A program made the position numbers and the translations under genes. The notes under the pieces were generated by a model. That model saw only the letters and a list, made by a program, of their open reading frames with translations. It searched no databases and was not told the origin of the DNA. Below, piece by piece: positions 5,367 to 22,441 of a DNA stretch of 64,000 bases (position 1 is the first letter of the stretch; every line of letters begins with the position of its first letter). This DNA is from an uncultured Gemmatimonadota bacterium (GTDB taxonomy: Bacteria > JAAXHH01). The stretch covers positions 1,248,001 through 1,312,000 of the forward strand of contig OX638340.1 in the NCBI GenBank assembly GCA_951812955.1. Reading direction: 5' to 3'.

Positions 5367-6764
5367 GTGACACGCAAGCCGAATATCATCTATCTGCTGG
5401 CGGACGACTGGGGATACGGGGATGTAAGCTGTCTCAATCCCGATTCCAAAATCCCGACGCTGCATACCGATCGGCTCGCAGGCGAAGGGATGGTGTTTAC
5501 GGATGCCCACAGCAATTCCGCGGTATGCACGCCCACGCGATACGGCGTGCTGACGGGACGTTACTGCTGGCGATCGCGGCTGAAGCGCGGGGTCTTGAAC
5601 GGCTATTCCGAACCGTTGATCGAGGAGGGACGCATGACGGTCCCTACGCTGCTTCGCGACCAGGGATATACGACGGCCTGCGTGGGCAAGTGGCACCTGG
5701 GACTGGGCTGGCAGACCTCCGGAGGAGTGGAGACGGTAAATAAGGAGACGGTGCGTTTCTCCGCTCCTTTGTCCCATGGTCCCCATACGGTGGGATTCGA
5801 CCATTCATACATCATCCCGGCGTCCCTCGATATGGAGCCCTACTGCTATATCGAAGATGGGGAGGTCGTGGAGCTTTCGGTCGAAGAGATAGCGGACTCG
5901 CCTCGGCCGGCCTTTTGGCGTGGAGGGGCCTGCGCGCCGGGGTTTTCCCATGAGACCTGCCTGCTGGAACTGACGATGCGGGCCGAGGGATTTATCCATC
6001 GGCACGCGAAAGAACATGGCGATCGGCCATTCTTTCTTTACTTCCCCGCACCTTCTCCCCATACGCCTCATTTTTCGCGAGACCGATTTGCCGGCCGGAG
6101 CCAGGCGGGCGTGTATGGAGATTACGTGACGGAGCACGACTGGAGTATCGGGCGAATCCTGGAGGCGGTGAAGCGCAATGGCCTGGAGGAGAATACGCTG
6201 ATTATCGTGACGAGTGACAATGGCTGCCACGCAGAGCCTATCGGGTTGAAGGAAAAGTATGATCACCTTGGAAATTACGTTTTCCGGGGTCAGAAGTCAG
6301 ATGCCTGGGACGGCGGTCACCGCATCCCGTTTATCGCGTCGTGGCCGGGCGTGATCGAACCAGGGTCACGATGTGAAAAGACGGTTTGTCTGACGGATCT
6401 GCTTGCGACCGTTGCCGGGATCTGCGAAGTGGACCTGCCGGTAGACGCCGGCGAAGACAGCTGCAATATCCTGCCCTATCTGCGGGGCGAACAGGCAGAG
6501 ACGATCCGTGAAGCGACGGTGCATCACTCGATCAGCGGGGAATTCGCCATACGGAAGGACAGGTGGAAGCTGGTAGAATGCCGCGGTTCGGGTGGGTGGA
6601 CCCTGAAAGAATCGGATGTGCCCGGGGATGCGCCGCCGATGCAACTCTACGATATGGTTTCCGATCCGGGAGAACGGTTAAACCTGTTTAGCAAAAAGCC
6701 CGGTGTGGTCGAGGATTTGCTCGACACGCTGAATCGGTACCGGACCGGCGGCCGGAGCACGTGA
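5367..6764 (+). CDS. formylglycine-dependent sulfatase (arylsulfatase family), no signal peptide
   Basis: NIIYLLADDWGYGD...CTPTRYGVLTGRY (CxPxR) and ...GKWHLG. The ORF-track start at 5241 is TTG. GTG at 5367 (VTRKPNIIYL) has AAAGGG 7 nt upstream; GTG at 5352 is also possible. No hydrophobic N-terminal segment in any version. Confidence 0.8.
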   Translation: MTRKPNIIYLLADDWGYGDVSCLNPDSKIPTLHTDRLAGEGMVFTDAHSNSAVCTPTRYGVLTGRYCWRSRLKRGVLNGYSEPLIEEGRMTVPTLLRDQGYTTACVGKWHLGLGWQTSGGVETVNKETVRFSAPLSHGPHTVGFDHSYIIPASLDMEPYCYIEDGEVVELSVEEIADSPRPAFWRGGACAPGFSHETCLLELTMRAEGFIHRHAKEHGDRPFFLYFPAPSPHTPHFSRDRFAGRSQAGVYGDYVTEHDWSIGRILEAVKRNGLEENTLIIVTSDNGCHAEPIGLKEKYDHLGNYVFRGQKSDAWDGGHRIPFIASWPGVIEPGSRCEKTVCLTDLLATVAGICEVDLPVDAGEDSCNILPYLRGEQAETIREATVHHSISGEFAIRKDRWKLVECRGSGGWTLKESDVPGDAPPMQLYDMVSDPGERLNLFSKKPGVVEDLLDTLNRYRTGGRST

Positions 6765-6765
6765 A

Positions 6766-6850
6766 ACCGCGAGGTAGGTGAGACCTTCGAATCAGGTAAG
6801 GCCGCGAGGTACTTGAGACCGCGAGGCAGGGTAGGCCGCGAGGTACGTGA
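6766..6850. repeat. 4 degenerate copies of a ~20-bp unit centred on CCGCGAGGTA, starting at the sulfatase stop codon
   Basis: Read directly: gtgaAACCGCGAGGTAggtgaga / gtaaGGCCGCGAGGTActtgaga / CCGCGAGGcagggtag / GCCGCGAGGTAcgtgagc, ending at the AAGGAG RBS of the next sulfatase. Confidence 0.55.
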
Positions 6851-6869
6851 GCAAAGGAGTGTGGATGCG

Positions 6870-8714
6870 ATGAACGGCAAGAGACCCAACGTCATACTGG
6901 TTATCACTGACGACCAGGGATACGGGGACCTGGGTTGTACGGGCCACCCCTGGTTGAGGACGCCAAGTATCGATGCATTTCACCGCGACGCGGTCCGCCT
7001 TGCGGATTTCCACGTTTCGCCTCTGTGTACGCCGACGCGCGGAGCCTTGATGACGGGACGGCGACCCGTACGAAACGGCGCATGGGCGACCTGCTGGGGA
7101 CGGTCCATCCTACGGAAGTCCGAGACGACCATGGCGGACGTTTTCAGCGAGGCCGGGTACCGAACCGCCATGTTCGGAAAGTGGCACCTGGGCGACAACT
7201 ATCCCTATCGTCCCCAGGACCGGGGATTCCGGCACGTGGTGGCCCACAAGGGCGGGGGCGTGGGACAGACGCCCGATTTCTGGGGCAACAATTACTTCGA
7301 CGACACCTATTTCCAAAACGGGGAGCCCGTGGAACACGCCGGATACTGCACGGACGTGTGGTTCGACGAGGCGATCCGTTTCATCGAGGGGTGCGCGGCC
7401 GGCCGGTCCGCCGGTTCGTCGCCAGCGCAGAGGCAGCGCCAGGAAGCATCCCCGGCCAGTCCGAACGGAGCGGACAGAGCGGACAGTCCGAACGGAGCGG
7501 ACGGAGCGGACGAGCCGTTCTTCGTTTATCTGGCAACCAACGCACCGCACACCCCTTATCTCGTGTCCGAGGAATACGCCCATCCGTACCAGGGTATTCA
7601 AGATATACCGGAACCCGAGTTCTGCGGAATGATCGCGAACATCGACGAGAATTTCGGCCGACTGCGGCGTACGCTGGCACAACTGGGTCTGGAAGAAAAC
7701 ACCATCCTGGTCTTCATGACCGACAACGGGAGCTCCGGTGGCAGTGAACTCGATGAAAACCAGCACGCGGTGCGAGGTTACAACGCGGGGATGCGGGGCA
7801 AGAAGGGCTCCTACTACGACGGCGGTCATCGCGTGCCCTTCTTCCTTCGCTGGCCTGGAGGCGGTCTCGGGGGAGGACGTGACGTGGACGAGATGACCCT
7901 CCACGTAGACATCCTGCCGACACTCGTCGCGTTGTGCGGGTTGGACGAACCCGATGTGGACTTCGACGGGGTCAGTGTGGCGCCGCTACTTCGTGGTGAG
8001 CGGTCGGGCCTGCCCGGCGACCGGGTGCACTTTCTTCAGTACCGGCAGGATACCGTGCCTCCGGAGAAATGGACCAGCGCGGTCATGACCCGACGTTGGC
8101 GGCTGGTGCGGGGAAAGGAACTGTACGATATCAAGGCCGATCCGGGACAGTGGTGTGATGTCGCCCGGGAGCATCCCGACGTGGTGGACCGGCTGCGATG
8201 TAATCACGACGCCTGGTGGGACGAGATATCACCCGGTCTCGATGTGTATTGCCCCATCGAACTGGGAAGCCCCGCCGAGAATCCCACCCGCCTCTGCGCC
8301 ATGGACGTCCTTGGCGACGTGGCCTGGCACCAGACCCATATTGCCCGGGCACAGGAGAGCAGCGGGACCTGGGCCGTCGAGATCGAAAGGCCGGCCCGCT
8401 ACCGGTTCAATCTTCGCCGGTGGCCCGCCGAACGCGAGCTTGCGATCGACGGCGTGATACCGCCGGACGAGGCGCGCCGCCTTATCTATGCGCCTGAAGA
8501 TGCGGGCGCGCTGGCCATTCAGCCCGTCGAAGCACGCCTGTCCCTGTTCGGTCAAACACACCGCATGACAGTGAGTAAAGGCGATACGGCCGTCGAATTC
8601 ACCCTCGAAATCACACATACGGGTGTGACGAACCTGGAAGCCTCCTTCGTCGACGTGACCGGAGATGCCAGGGGAGCGTTCTATGTGGATGTCGAGCGGC
8701 TGGATGAGGTTTAG
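6870..8714 (+). CDS. formylglycine-dependent sulfatase, no signal peptide, with an acidic low-complexity insertion
   Basis: ATG at 6870 preceded by AAGGAG. NVILVITDDQGYGD...CTPTRGALMTGR...GKWHLG. Insertion SPASPNGADRADSPNGADGADEP is encoded by an 18-bp nucleotide repeat at ~7440-7515. Confidence 0.85.
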   Translation: MNGKRPNVILVITDDQGYGDLGCTGHPWLRTPSIDAFHRDAVRLADFHVSPLCTPTRGALMTGRRPVRNGAWATCWGRSILRKSETTMADVFSEAGYRTAMFGKWHLGDNYPYRPQDRGFRHVVAHKGGGVGQTPDFWGNNYFDDTYFQNGEPVEHAGYCTDVWFDEAIRFIEGCAAGRSAGSSPAQRQRQEASPASPNGADRADSPNGADGADEPFFVYLATNAPHTPYLVSEEYAHPYQGIQDIPEPEFCGMIANIDENFGRLRRTLAQLGLEENTILVFMTDNGSSGGSELDENQHAVRGYNAGMRGKKGSYYDGGHRVPFFLRWPGGGLGGGRDVDEMTLHVDILPTLVALCGLDEPDVDFDGVSVAPLLRGERSGLPGDRVHFLQYRQDTVPPEKWTSAVMTRRWRLVRGKELYDIKADPGQWCDVAREHPDVVDRLRCNHDAWWDEISPGLDVYCPIELGSPAENPTRLCAMDVLGDVAWHQTHIARAQESSGTWAVEIERPARYRFNLRRWPAERELAIDGVIPPDEARRLIYAPEDAGALAIQPVEARLSLFGQTHRMTVSKGDTAVEFTLEITHTGVTNLEASFVDVTGDARGAFYVDVERLDEV

Positions 8715-8774
8715 AGCCGGCCTGCTGTTCGACTATCTGTGGCTCGGATCGAATGTGAAACCGAAGCGTAAGAC

Positions 8775-9713
8775 CTAAGCCGTCACCCCGTGACGGATGC
8801 CAAGCGCCCCGGAGAACCTTTCGATGGAAGTCGCCAGCCCGTCGATCAGTCCCTCGTCAAAGGCTGTCAACCTGGCGTCCGTAGATCGGCAGCGCGTGGT
8901 GATGGGCAATCCGACGCGTTGCAGGTACCGCTTGCAGGTCACGAGGTACTTGTTGTTCACGACCGGCGCCAGGGCAGTCATCATCCGTTGTACCTCCTCC
9001 GCCGTTTCCGGCTGTCCGTCATATTCCGCGCACAGCCAGGAGAACAGTTCGGGAAACACGTTGGCGGCAACGGGCGAAATGCCCGCGGCGCCGTGGCGCA
9101 GCCCCTCGAGACCGGTTTCGAAATGGGCGTTGTAGACACCGAGCCGCGTAGACCTTACAGCGTCGATCTTCCGCCTTAGTATATCGATATTGCAGGCGGT
9201 ATCCTTGTGATATAGGAACCTGTCTGTGCTGCCGAAATGACCGAAGAGACCGGGCGAAATGAGCCGGTGATAGGGCGTTGGACATTCGTAGAGACCCAGC
9301 GGGACAGGGTCGGTCAGTTCGAGCAACCGCTCCATATTCCGTTTAAGCACTTCCTCGCTCTCGTCCCGGCCGGCCAGCAGGCAAACGATGACGACTACCG
9401 CGTCCACGCCCGTACCGGCCATGCGCCGGACGAAATCGGCCTGGCCGTCGACCGGACCGCCGAAGGTGCCAGTCGCGACCACCGGTACCCGTCCGCCGGC
9501 CCGCTGTACGACGCGGCGGGTCACCTCCAGGCGTTCGTCATCGTCCAGGTGAAACATCTCGCTTGAACCACAGCAGGCAAAGAGTCCGGCCGATCCTCTT
9601 TCGATGTACCAGTCGGTCAGGGCATCCACGCCCCGCCAGTCGATGGATCCGTCTTCGTGAAAGGCGTTGAGCATCACCGGCCAGAGGCCGCGTGGCAGTT
9701 TATTCATAGACAT
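8775..9713 (-). CDS. DapA/NAL-family class I aldolase (dihydrodipicolinate synthase / N-acetylneuraminate lyase-like)
   Basis: MSMNKLPRGLWPVMLNAFHEDGSIDWRGVDALTDWYIERGSAGLFACCGSSEMFHLDDDERLEV matches the DHDPS-family N-terminal pattern. Start set at a true internal ATG; the ORF-track upstream extension is unlikely. Confidence 0.65.
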   Translation of the reverse strand: MSMNKLPRGLWPVMLNAFHEDGSIDWRGVDALTDWYIERGSAGLFACCGSSEMFHLDDDERLEVTRRVVQRAGGRVPVVATGTFGGPVDGQADFVRRMAGTGVDAVVVIVCLLAGRDESEEVLKRNMERLLELTDPVPLGLYECPTPYHRLISPGLFGHFGSTDRFLYHKDTACNIDILRRKIDAVRSTRLGVYNAHFETGLEGLRHGAAGISPVAANVFPELFSWLCAEYDGQPETAEEVQRMMTALAPVVNNKYLVTCKRYLQRVGLPITTRCRSTDARLTAFDEGLIDGLATSIERFSGALGIRHGVTA

Positions 9714-18919: not shown

Positions 18920-19046
18920 CATAGTGAGCGCTGTATACGAAAATCCGACTGCGTTCGATGGATCTTTACAGGCCGATGGGTCGGCCGGAACCTCGGTCAG
19001 TCCAACAGGCACTGACATTCGGGATGAGGTCGCCACCATCGGGTAG

Positions 19047-19119
19047 TGGAGCTGAGCGGGATCGAACCGCTGACCTCATGAATGCCATTCATGCGCTCTC
19101 CCAGCTGAGCTACAGCCCC
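19047..19119 (-). tRNA. tRNA-Ala (anticodon GGC)
   Basis: Reverse complement is GGGGCTGTAGCTCAGCTGGGAGAGCGCATGAATGGCATTCATGAGGTCAGCGGTTCGATCCCGCTCAGCTCCA. It folds as a cloverleaf with a G3:U70 Ala identity pair and anticodon loop ATGGCAT. No encoded CCA. Confidence 0.85.
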
Positions 19120-19472
19120 TGACGCCGCTAAAAATATGAACAGGACAGGAGACTGTCAAGTGAAAACCTCGCGCGGATGCAGTCGCTGAAAGTGCAGGAT
19201 GCCGCCGTGGATAAAGCGCGGGCGACACCTCGGAACTAACGCGGATGCCGCCGCAAATGGATACGTTTGCAACCCAGATCGAAATCAAGATTACCGCTTG
19301 ATGTCGACGGAGTTCCTGATTAACGTCGAGGTACCGGGCACGCCTTCAGTCCGCGCGGCGGATCGACGCCGGAATCCTGTGTATTCACGTTGGCAATTGC
19401 AGTCATCGACGAATCGGGGGCGTGCCGGAATAGCGGTCGGTACCCCTATGTTCATCGAAAGGCCATAGATTC

Positions 19473-20948
19473 ATGTCCATAGTCAAGACCAGCGTAAGCC
19501 ATCCAATCCGCGTCGATGCAGTACGTCCGAGGGACGGTTTCGGCCAGATCGGCGTCACCCTGTGTCCCGGCAAAAAGTATCCCTGGGGAATTGCGGGGAA
19601 CTGGGAACGCGACCTGTGCCTGGACCTCGAAAGGATCAGAAAGTGGGGCGCGACGGCGGTAGTCAGCCTGATCACCGAGGAGGAAATACGGGACCTGCAA
19701 GTTCAGGACATCTCAAGGGCGGTTGCGGACCGCCATATGGAGTGGTGGCACCTGCCCATCCCGGACGGGCAGCCACCCGGACCAGACTTCGAAAAAGCCT
19801 GGGTTCATGCGGGAGCGGCCATCCGGGACCGCCTGCGACTCGGATTCGACGTGCTCGTCCATTGTAAGGGCGGCCTGGGCCGCGCGGGTACGGTCGCCGC
19901 GCGGTTGCTCGTTGAGTTCGGCGAAAATCCGGACGAAGCGATACGGCGCGTTCGAGCGGCACGCTCGCAAAACGCCCTCGAAACGCGCGACCAGGAACGC
20001 CACGTAAAGCAATGCGCGCGGGCAGCGCCCACTCGACCCGTCACGACAGAAGAAAGCATCCGGGACCGCGCGATCGGCGCCTTCCTGGGTCTCGCGGTAG
20101 GGGACGCGGTCGGCACGACGCTCGAGTTCCGGGGCCGCGACGCGCAGGAGCGGGTGGACGATATGGTAGGCGGTGGTCCGTTCAATCTGTCAGCCGGCGA
20201 ATGGACCGACGACACCACCATGGCGCTGGCCCTGGCCGACAGTCTCGCCGAATGCGGGACGCTCGATTGCCGGGACCTGATGGACCGGTTCGTCCGATGG
20301 TGGAAGAAAGGCGAATACTCATGCACCGGGAGTTGCTTCGACATCGGGAATACCACGAGCGCGGCGCTTTCACGCTATGTGCGGACAGACGATCCGATCG
20401 CTGGTTCCACCGAATCCCGCGCCGCGGGAAACGGTTCGCTGATGCGGCTCGCCCCGGTCGCACTGCGCTACTGGGACGACCGCGCCTTGCTCGACGCCAC
20501 GGCGGCAGAACAGTCCCGGACCACCCACGGGTCCGAGGAGGCGGTGGACGCCTGCCGGGCCTTCGCGGAACTGCTTGCGGACGCCATCGCGGGCAAAGCA
20601 CGGGTGGAAGTCCTCGCCCCGAGGTCCTTCGATGGAGCACCGGCCGTCGCCCGGATTCTTGGTGGTAGCTGGCGCGGCCTTGCCCGGAGAAAGATCAGTT
20701 CGAGCGGATATGTGATAGACACCATGGAAGCCGCGTTATGGTCCGTCGCCCGCACCTCCGATTTCCGGGGCGCCGTGCTGCTCGCGGCCAACCTGGCTGA
20801 TGACGCCGACACGGTCGCCGCGGTGACGGGGCAGCTCGCCGGAGCGCTCTACGGCCTGAGCGGCATTCCCGGCGACTGGCTTGATCAGGTCGCGTGGAAG
20901 GATCGACTCCTGGACGTGGCGGGCCGATTGACGAGCAGAACCATCTGA
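19473..20948 (+). CDS. two-domain protein: N-terminal Cys-based protein-tyrosine/dual-specificity phosphatase-like domain (HCKGGLGRAG, CX5R) fused to C-terminal ADP-ribosylglycohydrolase (ARH/DraG family)
   Basis: VLVHCKGGLGRAGT P-loop in domain 1. AIGAFLGLAVGDAVGTTLEF, GEWTDDTTMALALADSL, SGYVIDTMEAALW and DADTVAAVTGQLAGALYG ARH signatures in domain 2. Confidence 0.75.
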   Translation: MSIVKTSVSHPIRVDAVRPRDGFGQIGVTLCPGKKYPWGIAGNWERDLCLDLERIRKWGATAVVSLITEEEIRDLQVQDISRAVADRHMEWWHLPIPDGQPPGPDFEKAWVHAGAAIRDRLRLGFDVLVHCKGGLGRAGTVAARLLVEFGENPDEAIRRVRAARSQNALETRDQERHVKQCARAAPTRPVTTEESIRDRAIGAFLGLAVGDAVGTTLEFRGRDAQERVDDMVGGGPFNLSAGEWTDDTTMALALADSLAECGTLDCRDLMDRFVRWWKKGEYSCTGSCFDIGNTTSAALSRYVRTDDPIAGSTESRAAGNGSLMRLAPVALRYWDDRALLDATAAEQSRTTHGSEEAVDACRAFAELLADAIAGKARVEVLAPRSFDGAPAVARILGGSWRGLARRKISSSGYVIDTMEAALWSVARTSDFRGAVLLAANLADDADTVAAVTGQLAGALYGLSGIPGDWLDQVAWKDRLLDVAGRLTSRTI

Positions 20949-21037
20949 CCTCTGCCCCTGGACCACATTCACAGGCTCTTGTATCTGCTATACTCTGACC
21001 GATTGACGAGCAGGACGAATTGACCTCTGTACAACCC
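20919..21037. repeat. spaced direct repeat (~33 bp x2, ~80 bp apart): copy 1 is the 3' end plus stop of the phosphatase-ARH gene, copy 2 lies downstream
   Basis: ccgattgacgagcagaaccatctgacctctg versus ccgattgacgagcaggacgaattgacctctg. Confidence 0.6.
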
Positions 21038-21175
21038 GGGGCGCATACCGGGTTCGGCATCGATTGGCGCAAATTTCTGCTTGAATAGCGCAGGGCGCCG
21101 TGTTATAGTCCTGCATCTCGTTACAACCTTTCCGAACGCATACGATTTCAGTTCGATCGTTGAATCAGGACGCCC

Positions 21176-22441
21176 ATGGCGGAATCCCTGGCAATCGACG
21201 GCGGAACACCGGTCCGCACGCAACAGTGGCCTCCGCTCATACCCGGTGGATCGGTTTACGGGGAAGAGGAAAAACAGGCCGCCATCGAAGTCATCGAGGC
21301 CCGTTCTCCTTTCCGTTACTACGGCATAGAGTCCCTGGGCAAGGTCGACCGGTTCGAAGCGGCCTACGCCCGGTACGTCGGCACCCGCTTCGCCCTGGCA
21401 ACCCACAGCGGAAGCACAGCGCTCTCCGTGGCCCTCGCCGCCCTCGACGTGGGTCCGGGCACGGAAGTCATCATGCCGGCCTTCATGTGGATCGCCGACG
21501 TCAACGCGGTCGTGCATCTGCGTGCCGTGCCGGTCCTCGCCGACATCGACGAAACGCTGAACCTCGACCCCGGTGACATTGAACGCCGCATCACGCCCCG
21601 CACCCGGGTCATCATCGCCGTCCACATGGCCGGAACGGCCGCCGACATGCCCGCCATCCTGGAGGTGGCGGACCGGCACGGGATCCCCGTGCTCGAGGAT
21701 TGCTCCCAGGCGGCGGGCGCGCGCATCGGAGGGCGGCCCGTGGGATCCATGGGCAAGGCCGGTGCCGTCAGCCTGCAGTACAACAAAAATTTCACCACCG
21801 GCGAAGGCGGGATGATTACGACGGACGACGATGAAGTCTACCGCCGGGCGGTCTGCTTCCACGACACGGGTTTCGAACGGGATCTCGAAGGGGTTTCGAC
21901 CGGAGAGGACTCGGCGTTCGAGACCTTTGGCATGGGCGTCCGCATGGACGAACTCCGCGGCGCGGTAGGCCTGGTCCAACTGGAGAAGTTGCCCGGCATC
22001 CTGGAAGGCATGCGACGCCATCAGGACAGGTTGCGCGAGACGCTCGGCAGGACGCCCGGTATCCAGCTTCGCCGCATCGCCGATCCCGAAGGCGACAGCG
22101 GGGCCTATTTCTCCTGGATTCATGATTCGGCGGAAGCGGCCGCCCGTTTCACCGCGGCCGTCAGGGCGGAAGGCATCCCTGCTGGAGAGCCCCACGGCGG
22201 CATTCACCAGTACAGGTACATGTCCAACCTGCTGAACAAGGCGCCGGTGACGACGGCCGGATGCCCCTGGACCTGTCCATTCAACTCCGAAAGCCCTATG
22301 GAATACCGCGCCGGCATGCTGCCGCGCAGCGACGATCTGCTGGACCGGGCGCGCATCCTGCCGTTGCCCGCACAGTTGACCGAAGAAGACGTGGACGACG
22401 TGATCCGGGCGTTCCGCAAGGTAGCGCGGGCCGTCCTGTAG
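21176..22441 (+). CDS. DegT/DnrJ/EryC1/StrS-family PLP-dependent aminotransferase
   Basis: AIEVIEARSPFRYYG..., ATHSGSTALSVAL, QYNKNFTTGEGGMITT (PLP lysine block). The minus ORF 20969..22207 is its shadow. Confidence 0.85.
   Translation: MAESLAIDGGTPVRTQQWPPLIPGGSVYGEEEKQAAIEVIEARSPFRYYGIESLGKVDRFEAAYARYVGTRFALATHSGSTALSVALAALDVGPGTEVIMPAFMWIADVNAVVHLRAVPVLADIDETLNLDPGDIERRITPRTRVIIAVHMAGTAADMPAILEVADRHGIPVLEDCSQAAGARIGGRPVGSMGKAGAVSLQYNKNFTTGEGGMITTDDDEVYRRAVCFHDTGFERDLEGVSTGEDSAFETFGMGVRMDELRGAVGLVQLEKLPGILEGMRRHQDRLRETLGRTPGIQLRRIADPEGDSGAYFSWIHDSAEAAARFTAAVRAEGIPAGEPHGGIHQYRYMSNLLNKAPVTTAGCPWTCPFNSESPMEYRAGMLPRSDDLLDRARILPLPAQLTEEDVDDVIRAFRKVARAVL

Follow-up and report, generated by a model that had tools for sequence, protein, structure and literature searches.

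A cysteine phosphatase-ADP-ribosylhydrolase fusion gene in an uncultured Gemmatimonadota bacterium: domains, locus and predicted function

The closest described relatives of the gene studied here belong to the ARG-centric systems, in which an ARG domain has no adjacent transferase; in more than 55% of cases it has a phosphatase coupled to it, usually one from the rhodanese-phosphatase (PTP) superfamily (Iyer, Burroughs et al., Viruses 2022, PMC9503650, section 3.8). The coupling is made within one polypeptide or by a neighbouring gene, and frequent, although not universal, partners are a Nudix- or WYL-type repressor, ARPP, chaperones and nucleases (PMC9503650). These systems are predicted to reverse virus-imposed ADP-ribosylation, and rapid evolution is named as one of their hallmarks (PMC9503650). 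From phyletic patterns Iyer et al. argue that ARG domains prefer macromolecular adducts, and they suggest that the phosphatase processes the released ADP-ribose further (PMC9503650). Among characterised enzymes the nearest are those of the DraG/Tri1 clade, which work on protein-Arg-ADP-ribose; the catalytic residues of DraG are E28, D60 and D97 (PMC8120803). We analyzed a gene that joins a cysteine phosphatase to an ADP-ribosylhydrolase (ARH) on a 64,000-nt stretch of contig OX638340.1 (positions 1,248,001 to 1,312,000) from an uncultured Gemmatimonadota bacterium. The whole of this stretch is called the window below.

Domains of the fusion protein

The N-terminal part of the protein scores above the cut-off with two Pfam phosphatase models: PTP-SAK (PF22784), at aa 57-190 with 45.3 bits vs a cut-off of 27, and PF22785, with 32.5 vs 27 bits. 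The P-loop, HCKGGLGRAG, occupies aa 130-139, and its Arg is followed by Ala (RAG), as in PRL, and not by Ser or Thr. Residue conservation was read from an alignment of 45 family members, 69-85% identical to the window protein. In all 45 sequences D98, H130, C131, R137 and Q174 are invariant, and these residues stand in register with the PIPD, HCxGGLGRxGT and ETxxQ motifs of archaeal Tk-PTP and of ShufPTP; 25xa aligns too. The AlphaFold (AF2) model of aa 1-190 has a pLDDT of 93.7, and its best Foldseek match is human KAP/CDKN3 (1fpz/1fq1; TM 0.75-0.82, root-mean-square deviation (rmsd) 2.3-2.5 Å, about 172 columns), followed by SsoPTP, VHZ, Tk-PTP, PRL, Cdc14 and PIR1. Judged by these residues, the cysteine phosphatase at the N-terminus is complete, with C131 as predicted nucleophile, R137 as P-loop arginine, D98 as general acid, and Q174. 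KAP/CDKN3, SsoPTP, Tk-PTP, PRL and VHZ/DUSP23 share its fold and its D / HCX5R / Q catalytic set; they are only 23-29% identical to the window domain, and they are stand-alone protein phosphatases whereas the clade found here is modular, with a preference for ADP-ribose hydrolases as partners.

The C-terminal part matches Pfam ADP_ribosyl_GH (PF03747) at aa 202-467 with 240.3 bits vs 26.2, covering 286 of the 287 profile positions. Both metal-ligand motifs are present, T-D-D (T245-D246-D247) and D-x-D-T (D444/D446/T447). Ten residues are invariant in the 45 sequences (D211, E218, D246, D247, T248, D290, H352, D444, D446 and T447), and T245 is nearly so, being kept in at least 90% of them. E28/D60/D97, the catalytic residues of DraG, have their counterparts in E218/D246/D290; when the DraG D97N variant 2woe is compared with 2woc, the sole column that differs is the one aligned to D290. 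The full-length AF2 model has a pLDDT of 91.7 and a pTM of 0.92, the latter value hinting that the interface of the two domains is fixed, and its C-terminal half, which shows the all-alpha ARH fold, superposes on the Thermus ARH structures 2cwc/2yzv/2yzw with a target-normalised Foldseek TM of 0.92-0.93 and an rmsd of about 2 Å. Other structural neighbours of this half are Tri1 (6dre/6drh, 44% identity), the Listeria ART-ARH immunity protein 8za7, and DraG. A sequence search of the PDB returned 6dre Tri1 over aa 174-486 (E=1.4e-78), as well as 2cwc, 8za7 and DraG 2woc. The nearest NCBIfam model is Tri1 (NF041672), at 374 bits under its equivalog cut-off of 490, and the DraG model TIGR02662 is matched with 166.8 bits, far under its cut-off of 337. 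The C-terminal domain is, in its predicted activity, a metal-dependent mono-ADP-ribosylhydrolase of the DraG/Tri1 clade, and its 44% identity to Tri1 together with its membership of the DraG clade suggests that it acts on ADP-ribosylated arginine.

The best match in both sequence and structure is Tri1, the ADP-ribosylarginine hydrolase that confers immunity to the type VI toxin Tre1 in Serratia proteamaculans, with the same E-D-D set and the same metal ligands. The N-terminal extension with which Tri1 plugs the active site of the toxin (PMC8120803) is mostly without counterpart here, where the phosphatase domain stands at the N-terminus instead. Tri1 also has a cognate Tre1 toxin and a type VI secretion system, whereas no Tre1-like gene adjoins the fusion gene (this concerns the neighbouring genes; no window-wide scan for ADP-ribosyltransferases (ART) was made). 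DraG (2woc/2woe/3g9d) has the same fold and the same catalytic residues as the ARH domain of the window protein, but the latter carries the additional phosphatase domain and lacks any DraT, nif or PII context.

A preliminary description of this DNA had proposed a phosphatase with an intact HCKGGLGRAG P-loop fused to a complete ARH domain. This holds: both Pfam domains are found in one open reading frame (ORF) of 491 aa, with all catalytic residues invariant. It had also asked whether the metal-binding residues of the ARH domain had been lost and whether the P-loop Cys and Arg correspond to the catalytic residues of PTPs. E218, D246, D247, D290, D444, D446 and T447 are all retained, and C131 and R137 align to those of Tk-PTP and ShufPTP. 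Because the metal ligands are kept and the P-loop is in register, neither domain appears to be a pseudo-enzyme, a possibility that we rejected for both since their catalytic and metal-binding residues are invariant and in register with those of solved PTPs and of DraG. Nei-Gojobori dN/dS values against 12 relatives range from 0.12 to 0.25 and are equal in the two halves, both of which are under purifying selection.

The family and its predicted function

The preliminary description had implied that the architecture was new, and it had called for a domain-architecture search. Such a search was run and it does away with the novelty: the fusion is widespread, with more than 6,000 homologues from a collection of 5.8 billion proteins, and it has been described computationally before (PMC9503650). 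The best 120 homologues are all full-length fusions with both Pfam domains, at 65-95% identity. With the phosphatase domain alone as query against 1.84 billion cluster representatives, 5,632 matches were obtained at E <= 1e-3 and 271 at E <= 1e-30. Among the best 150 of these representatives, 53 have an ARH domain, one has ARPP-1, another has a PARG macro fold, and 47 are short stand-alone proteins or fragments. The link between the PTP and ADP-ribose chemistry that had been supposed at the outset is strengthened by these cases, and such co-occurrence among the best 150 suggests a modular phosphatase clade whose preferred partners are ADP-ribose hydrolases. The clade itself reportedly was defined, probably by Burroughs & Aravind in NAR Genom Bioinform in 2023; the Pfam entries PF22784 (PTP-SAK) and PF20208 (ARPP-1) stem from the same group as the article on ARG-centric systems.

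A split form of the fusion occurs on plasmid p546-4 of Roseomonas haemaphysalidis (locus L077, 5974-7496; L numbers denote related loci). There ARH and PTP are two genes with a 4-nt overlap, in reverse order (ARH first), and the pair is 53% identical to the window protein. This split and translationally coupled pair lends independent support to a functional coupling of PTP and ARH. Its neighbours include an SRAP peptidase, a gene of the uracil-DNA glycosylase family, a HepT/nucleotidyltransferase pair and a restriction subunit. More distant relatives, fused and 33-35% identical, are carried by plasmids of cultured Alphaproteobacteria (Cereibacter, Leisingera, Fuscovulum). The window gene is unexceptional, a well-conserved representative of a large family that is already catalogued computationally; an exact-sequence look-up of its protein returned no record. 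A phage origin of the fusion was considered and rejected: none of the 48 phage records covers at least 80% of the query (the ARH part only), and of the 42 viral-contig loci just one, 29% identical, is full length. The fusion belongs essentially to cellular genomes. IMG/VR contigs, some of them longer than 100 kb, hold stand-alone PTP-SAK-type homologues (29-48% identity) with no ARH (L106, L109-L111, L113-L116, L118-L120), and ARH-only homologues occur on contigs of jumbo-phage size.

With the ARG-centric systems the window gene shares an ARG domain and a PTP/rhodanese-superfamily cysteine phosphatase fused in one polypeptide, and in neither of the syntenic relatives, L001 and L003, is an ART or sirtuin coupled to the ARG domain within ±6 kb. 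The published partners are found in other relatives. Protein P0120, 70% identical over its full length, has the architecture NUDIX-WHD_NrtR-PTP-ARH and adjoins an ARPP-1 gene; in L022 and L062 ARPP and a Nudix regulator are separate genes beside the fusion gene, and ARPP and Nudix-WHD partners are present in L022, L062 and L073. A tblastn search with the ARPP and Nudix-WHD proteins of L073 gave no match in the 64-kb window, and neither a chaperone nor a nuclease partner is found among the genes within 6 kb in L001 and L003. The difference is that the window has a bare fusion gene, and the function published for these systems is itself only a prediction. Judged by homology, the window gene is the minimal core of ARG-centric systems.

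We propose that its product is a cytoplasmic, stand-alone, two-domain enzyme that would erase ADP-ribosylation in biological conflicts; taken as a whole, we regard this reading as evenly balanced between right and wrong. The modifying transferases would be foreign, made by phages or injected as toxins by other bacteria. The ARH head would most likely cleave the arginine-ribose bond and free ADP-ribose from modified proteins, and the phosphatase head would most likely remove a phosphate monoester from the same substrate or product. Candidates for this second step are a 2'- or 1''-phosphorylated ADP-ribose moiety and a phosphoribosyl or ribose-5-phosphate remnant; any one of them, singled out, is an unlikely choice. 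Less likely than such a step, the phosphatase may free the same target proteins of a second modification, one of phosphate type. The Nudix/WYL regulator and the ARPP partner would have been lost from the window lineage, or may never have been present in it. The defensive role, the arginine specificity and the phosphatase substrate are the elements that we infer. The N-terminus shows no hydrophobic stretch resembling a signal peptide, residues 4-6 forming a strand of the folded domain.

Alternatively, the two heads could act in sequence on small molecules (soluble ADP-ribose-1''-phosphate (Appr-1''-p), 2'-phospho-ADP-ribose, O-acyl-ADP-ribose or signalling nucleotides) and serve detoxification, NAD salvage or the quenching of immune signals. 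Both active sites are intact, Pfam places the phosphatase with NAD/ADP-ribose-linked clades (PTP-SAK, PTP-NADK) and relatives are fused or adjacent to an ADP-ribose sensor of the NUDIX/NrtR type, all of which would suit such a role. However, we know of no PTP-fold enzyme that acts on Appr-1''-p. The suggestion by Iyer et al. that the phosphatase processes freed ADP-ribose also speaks for it (PMC9503650), but the substrate of the characterised DraG/Tri1-clade enzymes is protein-linked (PMC8120803), the same phyletic argument favours macromolecular adducts (PMC9503650), and no gene for NAD salvage or tRNA splicing (KptA/2H) lies nearby in L001 and L003. Appr-1''-p and similar substrates, put forward in the preliminary description, receive no preference over protein-linked ADP-ribose from these data, and we consider a small-molecule processor quite improbable.

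The locus and its surroundings

The nearest genomes are metagenome-assembled genomes (MAGs) labelled Gemmatimonadetes, Latescibacterota or simply 'bacterium', the closest protein being that of L050 (96% identity). L001 and L003 have the same gene order as the window: HU, SppA, SLT-LysM on the minus strand, the fusion gene on the plus strand, then a DegT-type aminotransferase, a class V aminotransferase and a Cys/Met pyridoxal-phosphate (PLP) enzyme. A tRNA-Ala(GGC) gene, the only hit of an Rfam scan, lies at the same place and in the same orientation, about 200-530 nt upstream of the fusion gene, in each of the 20 lineage loci that cover this region and in none of the loci from other phyla. 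In the window the two genes are divergent and 353 nt apart: the 5', promoter side of the tRNA gene faces the fusion gene, with a promoter-like site (TTGACA-17-TATTTT) just upstream of it on the minus strand, and its 3' end (19046) faces the SLT-LysM gene, away from the fusion gene. The fusion gene had been placed directly downstream of this tRNA gene. The adjacency stands; 'downstream' applies only to plus-strand coordinates.

The tRNA gene had further been regarded as an integration hot-spot. The usual integration point of tRNA-targeting elements is the 3' end of the tRNA gene, which here points away, on the opposite strand. The arrangement is kept in 20 of 20 genomes, no integrase is found among the called genes within 6 kb in L001 and L003, and the GC content of the fusion gene, 0.66-0.675, resembles that of the neighbouring DegT gene, with no break in composition. 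These results speak against the hot-spot, and a tRNA-linked genomic island was rejected on the same grounds of strand and orientation, synteny, integrase and GC content. The fusion proteins of related genomes are 76-96% identical to the window copy, and this value declines in step with the values for SppA and SLT-LysM of those genomes. The fusion gene is a vertically inherited resident of the window lineage, under purifying selection, and not a fresh island. At another point of the locus, L001 (9016-10489) and L002 (3385-4858) have an insert of about 1.8 kb that separates two genes adjoining each other in the window, those of the DegT-type and the class V aminotransferase; it contains a 60-aa AAA/SMC-like fragment and small ORFs with no known function.

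Such stability raises the alternative of an endogenous, DraG-like switch, in which the ARH head would undo the mark set by the cell's own transferase on a metabolic or envelope protein and the phosphatase would read a second, phospho-based signal on that target, as a housekeeping function. The position between housekeeping genes, fixed throughout the 20 lineage genomes, is in keeping with it, as are the divergence that follows SppA and SLT-LysM, the low dN/dS (0.12-0.25), the gene's own conserved promoter-like block with no regulator, and the presence of the DraG clade among the structural neighbours. On the other hand, the Pfam context of ±6 kb in L001 and L003 contains no transferase gene for such a mark, and the score with TIGR02662 (167 vs 337 bits) falls well short of DraG. 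Moreover, proteins 70-88% identical move between phyla, in several copies, flanked by insertion sequences (IS) and in defence islands, which would not be expected of a regulator with a single target. We consider the switch unlikely.

The proposal of an eraser in conflicts must itself be set against several observations. The neighbours in the window lineage (SppA, SLT-LysM, aminotransferases) have housekeeping or metabolic functions and not defensive ones, and PADLOC has no model that matches the window gene. Evolution at the fixed locus is slow, unlike the ARG-centric hallmark; the rapid evolution and variable neighbourhood of these systems are seen in other lineages but not in this one, where dN/dS is low and synteny fixed. 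The phosphatase domain has its nearest solved relatives among protein phosphatases, an ADP-ribose substrate being inference only, and arginine specificity cannot be read from the sequence. Finally, our literature search found no experimental work on any member of the fusion family.

The local signals of the fusion gene are collected in Table 1 with its other features. A putative ribosome-binding site, GAAAGG (19457-19462), lies 10 nt before the start codon and is kept in relatives. The spacer between the tRNA and the fusion gene has a single conserved block besides the tRNA promoter: CTTG (19297-19300) and TTA..GT (19320-19326) are invariant across 12 lineage sequences. A strict scan for consensus promoters did not call this block (19298..19326), which is plausibly, from its conservation, the promoter of the fusion gene (19297-19326). 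Another promoter-like site, TTGAAT-17-(TG)TTATAGT, is found at 21081-21109 (+), ahead of the gene for the DegT-type aminotransferase (21176..22441); 20 related genomes keep it almost unchanged, far better than the spacer around it. With a plausible promoter of its own and a separate, strongly conserved one for the DegT gene, the fusion gene looks monocistronic. The hairpin that might end its transcript has no T-run, was not called by the terminator scan and is statistically unremarkable; the equivalent hairpin of L050 has another stem sequence (-23 kcal/mol, z -1.8). The fusion gene is present in a single copy in the 64-kb window. Long ORFs overlap it or its neighbour on other frames or on the other strand (20969..22207 (-), 19805..20356 (-), 20012..20668 (+)); they reach 412 aa, antisense to DegT, and recur in relatives only as shadows of real genes, an artefact of high GC content.

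Table 1. Coordinates of the fusion gene and of associated features in the window
Feature	Position	Strand	Basis or remark
tRNA-Ala(GGC)	19046..19119	-	ARAGORN and Rfam; divergent neighbour, conserved synteny, no part in enzyme function
Putative promoter of the fusion gene (TTGATG, 17 nt, TAACGT)	19298..19326	+	suggested by conservation of the spacer
PTP-ARH fusion coding sequence	19473..20948	+	ATG start, 491 aa, stop included; ORF list, Pfam/NCBIfam/PDB matches
Phosphatase domain, KAP/CDKN3-like DSP-PTP fold	19473..20042	+	N-terminal, aa 1-190; PF22784, alignments, AF2, Foldseek
Codon of general acid D98	19764-19766	+	phosphatase domain
P-loop H130-R137	19860-19883	+	phosphatase domain; Q-loop residue is Q174
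ADP-ribosylhydrolase domain, ARH/DraG/Tri1-type	20058..20933	+	C-terminal, aa 196-487; PF03747, NF041672, PDB, Foldseek
Repeat copy 1	20924..20954	+	last codons, stop codon and 6 nt beyond
Repeat copy 2	20999..21029	+	3' untranslated region; matches the L050 gene end (…RLTSRTN-stop)
Hairpin after repeat copy 2, possible transcript end	21028..21059	+	weak: -13.8 kcal/mol, z -1.1

The odd duplication noticed earlier at the 3' end of the gene is real. Its two copies, 31 nt long and 87% identical, are 75 nt apart from start to start, with 44 nt between them; the 18-nt core, allowing up to 3 mismatches, has only these two sites in 64 kb, and none of 100 shuffles gave two matches. In the window, L050 and L005, the three closest genomes, a second copy of the last ~25 nt of the gene with its stop codon is found 44 nt downstream. 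In the window the downstream copy reads like the end of the L050 gene, and the copy in use has slightly diverged. Sister genomes have other duplications at the same spot: L006 a perfect 17-nt tandem, L007 and L008 several copies, and L012 a perfect copy of 44 nt. Lineage-specific tandem arrays also fill the spacer that separates the fusion gene from the tRNA: many copies of ~20-nt units in L006 (~7600-7900), six copies of GAGGCGTC in L009 (~7850-7900) and a ~47-nt duplication in L050 (~7650-7720). A pair of attL/attR sites was rejected as an explanation, given the mere 44 nt between the copies, the differing duplications in sister genomes and the tandem repeats of the spacer. The simplest reading would be a recurrent slippage-type event in repeat-prone intergenic DNA. 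The catalytic domains are left unaffected.

Spread outside the lineage and its meaning

In other lineages the fusion gene is mobile and keeps different company. On a Truepera contig it lies amid GmrSD, PIN-RHH, Fic, restriction endonuclease and Cas3 genes, and in an 8-Mb genome it is found beside Eco57I and a DNA methylase. Genomes with several copies belong to the Marinacidobacterales and Vicinamibacterales (4-5 copies): the Marinacidobacterales sequence OZ250169.1 has at least five loci (L029, L035, L055, L056, L063), and CBDHGC010000004.1 has four (L022, L038, L053, L071). Some of the copies in multicopy genomes are truncated to the N-terminal part, and those of Marinacidobacterales are flanked by transposase genes of the IS110 family and of IS3/rve. 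Proteins are highly similar across phyla: 88% identity between the gammaproteobacterial L018 and L004, 82% between Truepera and Vicinamibacterales, and 83% between Longimicrobiales and Marinacidobacterales. The loci with high cross-phylum identity are L004, L018, L019, L028, L043 and L074 (gene at about 8001-9470 or 6001-7500), and their labels include Deinococcota, Acidobacteriota and Gemmatimonadota. Identities of 82-88% between differently labelled phyla argue for recent horizontal transfer.

The carriers are mostly MAGs, with isolate names that hint at sponge or coral holobionts (APA_, IRC1_, RHO3_, SB06xx, Plut_, Poriferisodalis). The locus search finds close relatives only, so that the habitat signal is biased. 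The sponge/coral association is a lead and not a result, because the habitat is read from isolate names and the search favours close relatives. One could imagine from it a host-directed symbiosis factor delivered to sponge or coral cells, its phosphatase blunting phagocytic tyrosine-phosphate signalling, for which YopH and SptP are precedents, and its ARH reversing ADP-ribosylation by the host. Nearly all of the closest relatives are indeed MAGs with sponge- or coral-like isolate names, from many phyla and up to 88% identical, and the window protein has a weak NCBIfam match to the phosphatase region of SptP (E 0.0026). Yet the N-terminus lies within the folded domain and does not resemble a signal peptide, no secretion-associated domain is found, the distant fused relatives are on plasmids of cultured Alphaproteobacteria and the split pair is on a Roseomonas plasmid, and the habitat argument is subject to the bias just described. 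A symbiosis factor is highly improbable.

A bolder form of the eraser proposal is that a single PTP-ARH gene has recently been passed among at least 5-6 phyla sharing a habitat, has gained copies through IS in some Acidobacteriota and become a fixed core gene of the window lineage, and answers an ADP-ribosylating threat common to the whole habitat, with the phosphatase acting on a phosphorylated ADP-ribose adduct. We hold this chain of events to be rather unlikely as a whole. If true, it would imply a shared, habitat-wide threat (from a family of phages, from a toxin widespread among competing bacteria or from an enzyme of the host), and the enzyme would be a form of public-good immunity.

For specialists, the value of following up this gene lies only in the substrate of the phosphatase and in the spread across phyla. 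Examples of cultured entry points are plasmid pRSKD131B of Cereibacter sphaeroides KD131 (the fused relative from this strain is WP_012642314.1), Leisingera thetidis and the split pair on Roseomonas p546-4. To our knowledge, no host countermeasure that repairs ADP-ribosylated proteins has been demonstrated so far. If the prediction of an eraser is right, the family would provide bacteria with a general and non-abortive countermeasure of this kind, which repairs ADP-ribosylated proteins rather than killing the cell, and its phosphatase half would point to an ADP-ribose adduct or product that bears a phosphate.

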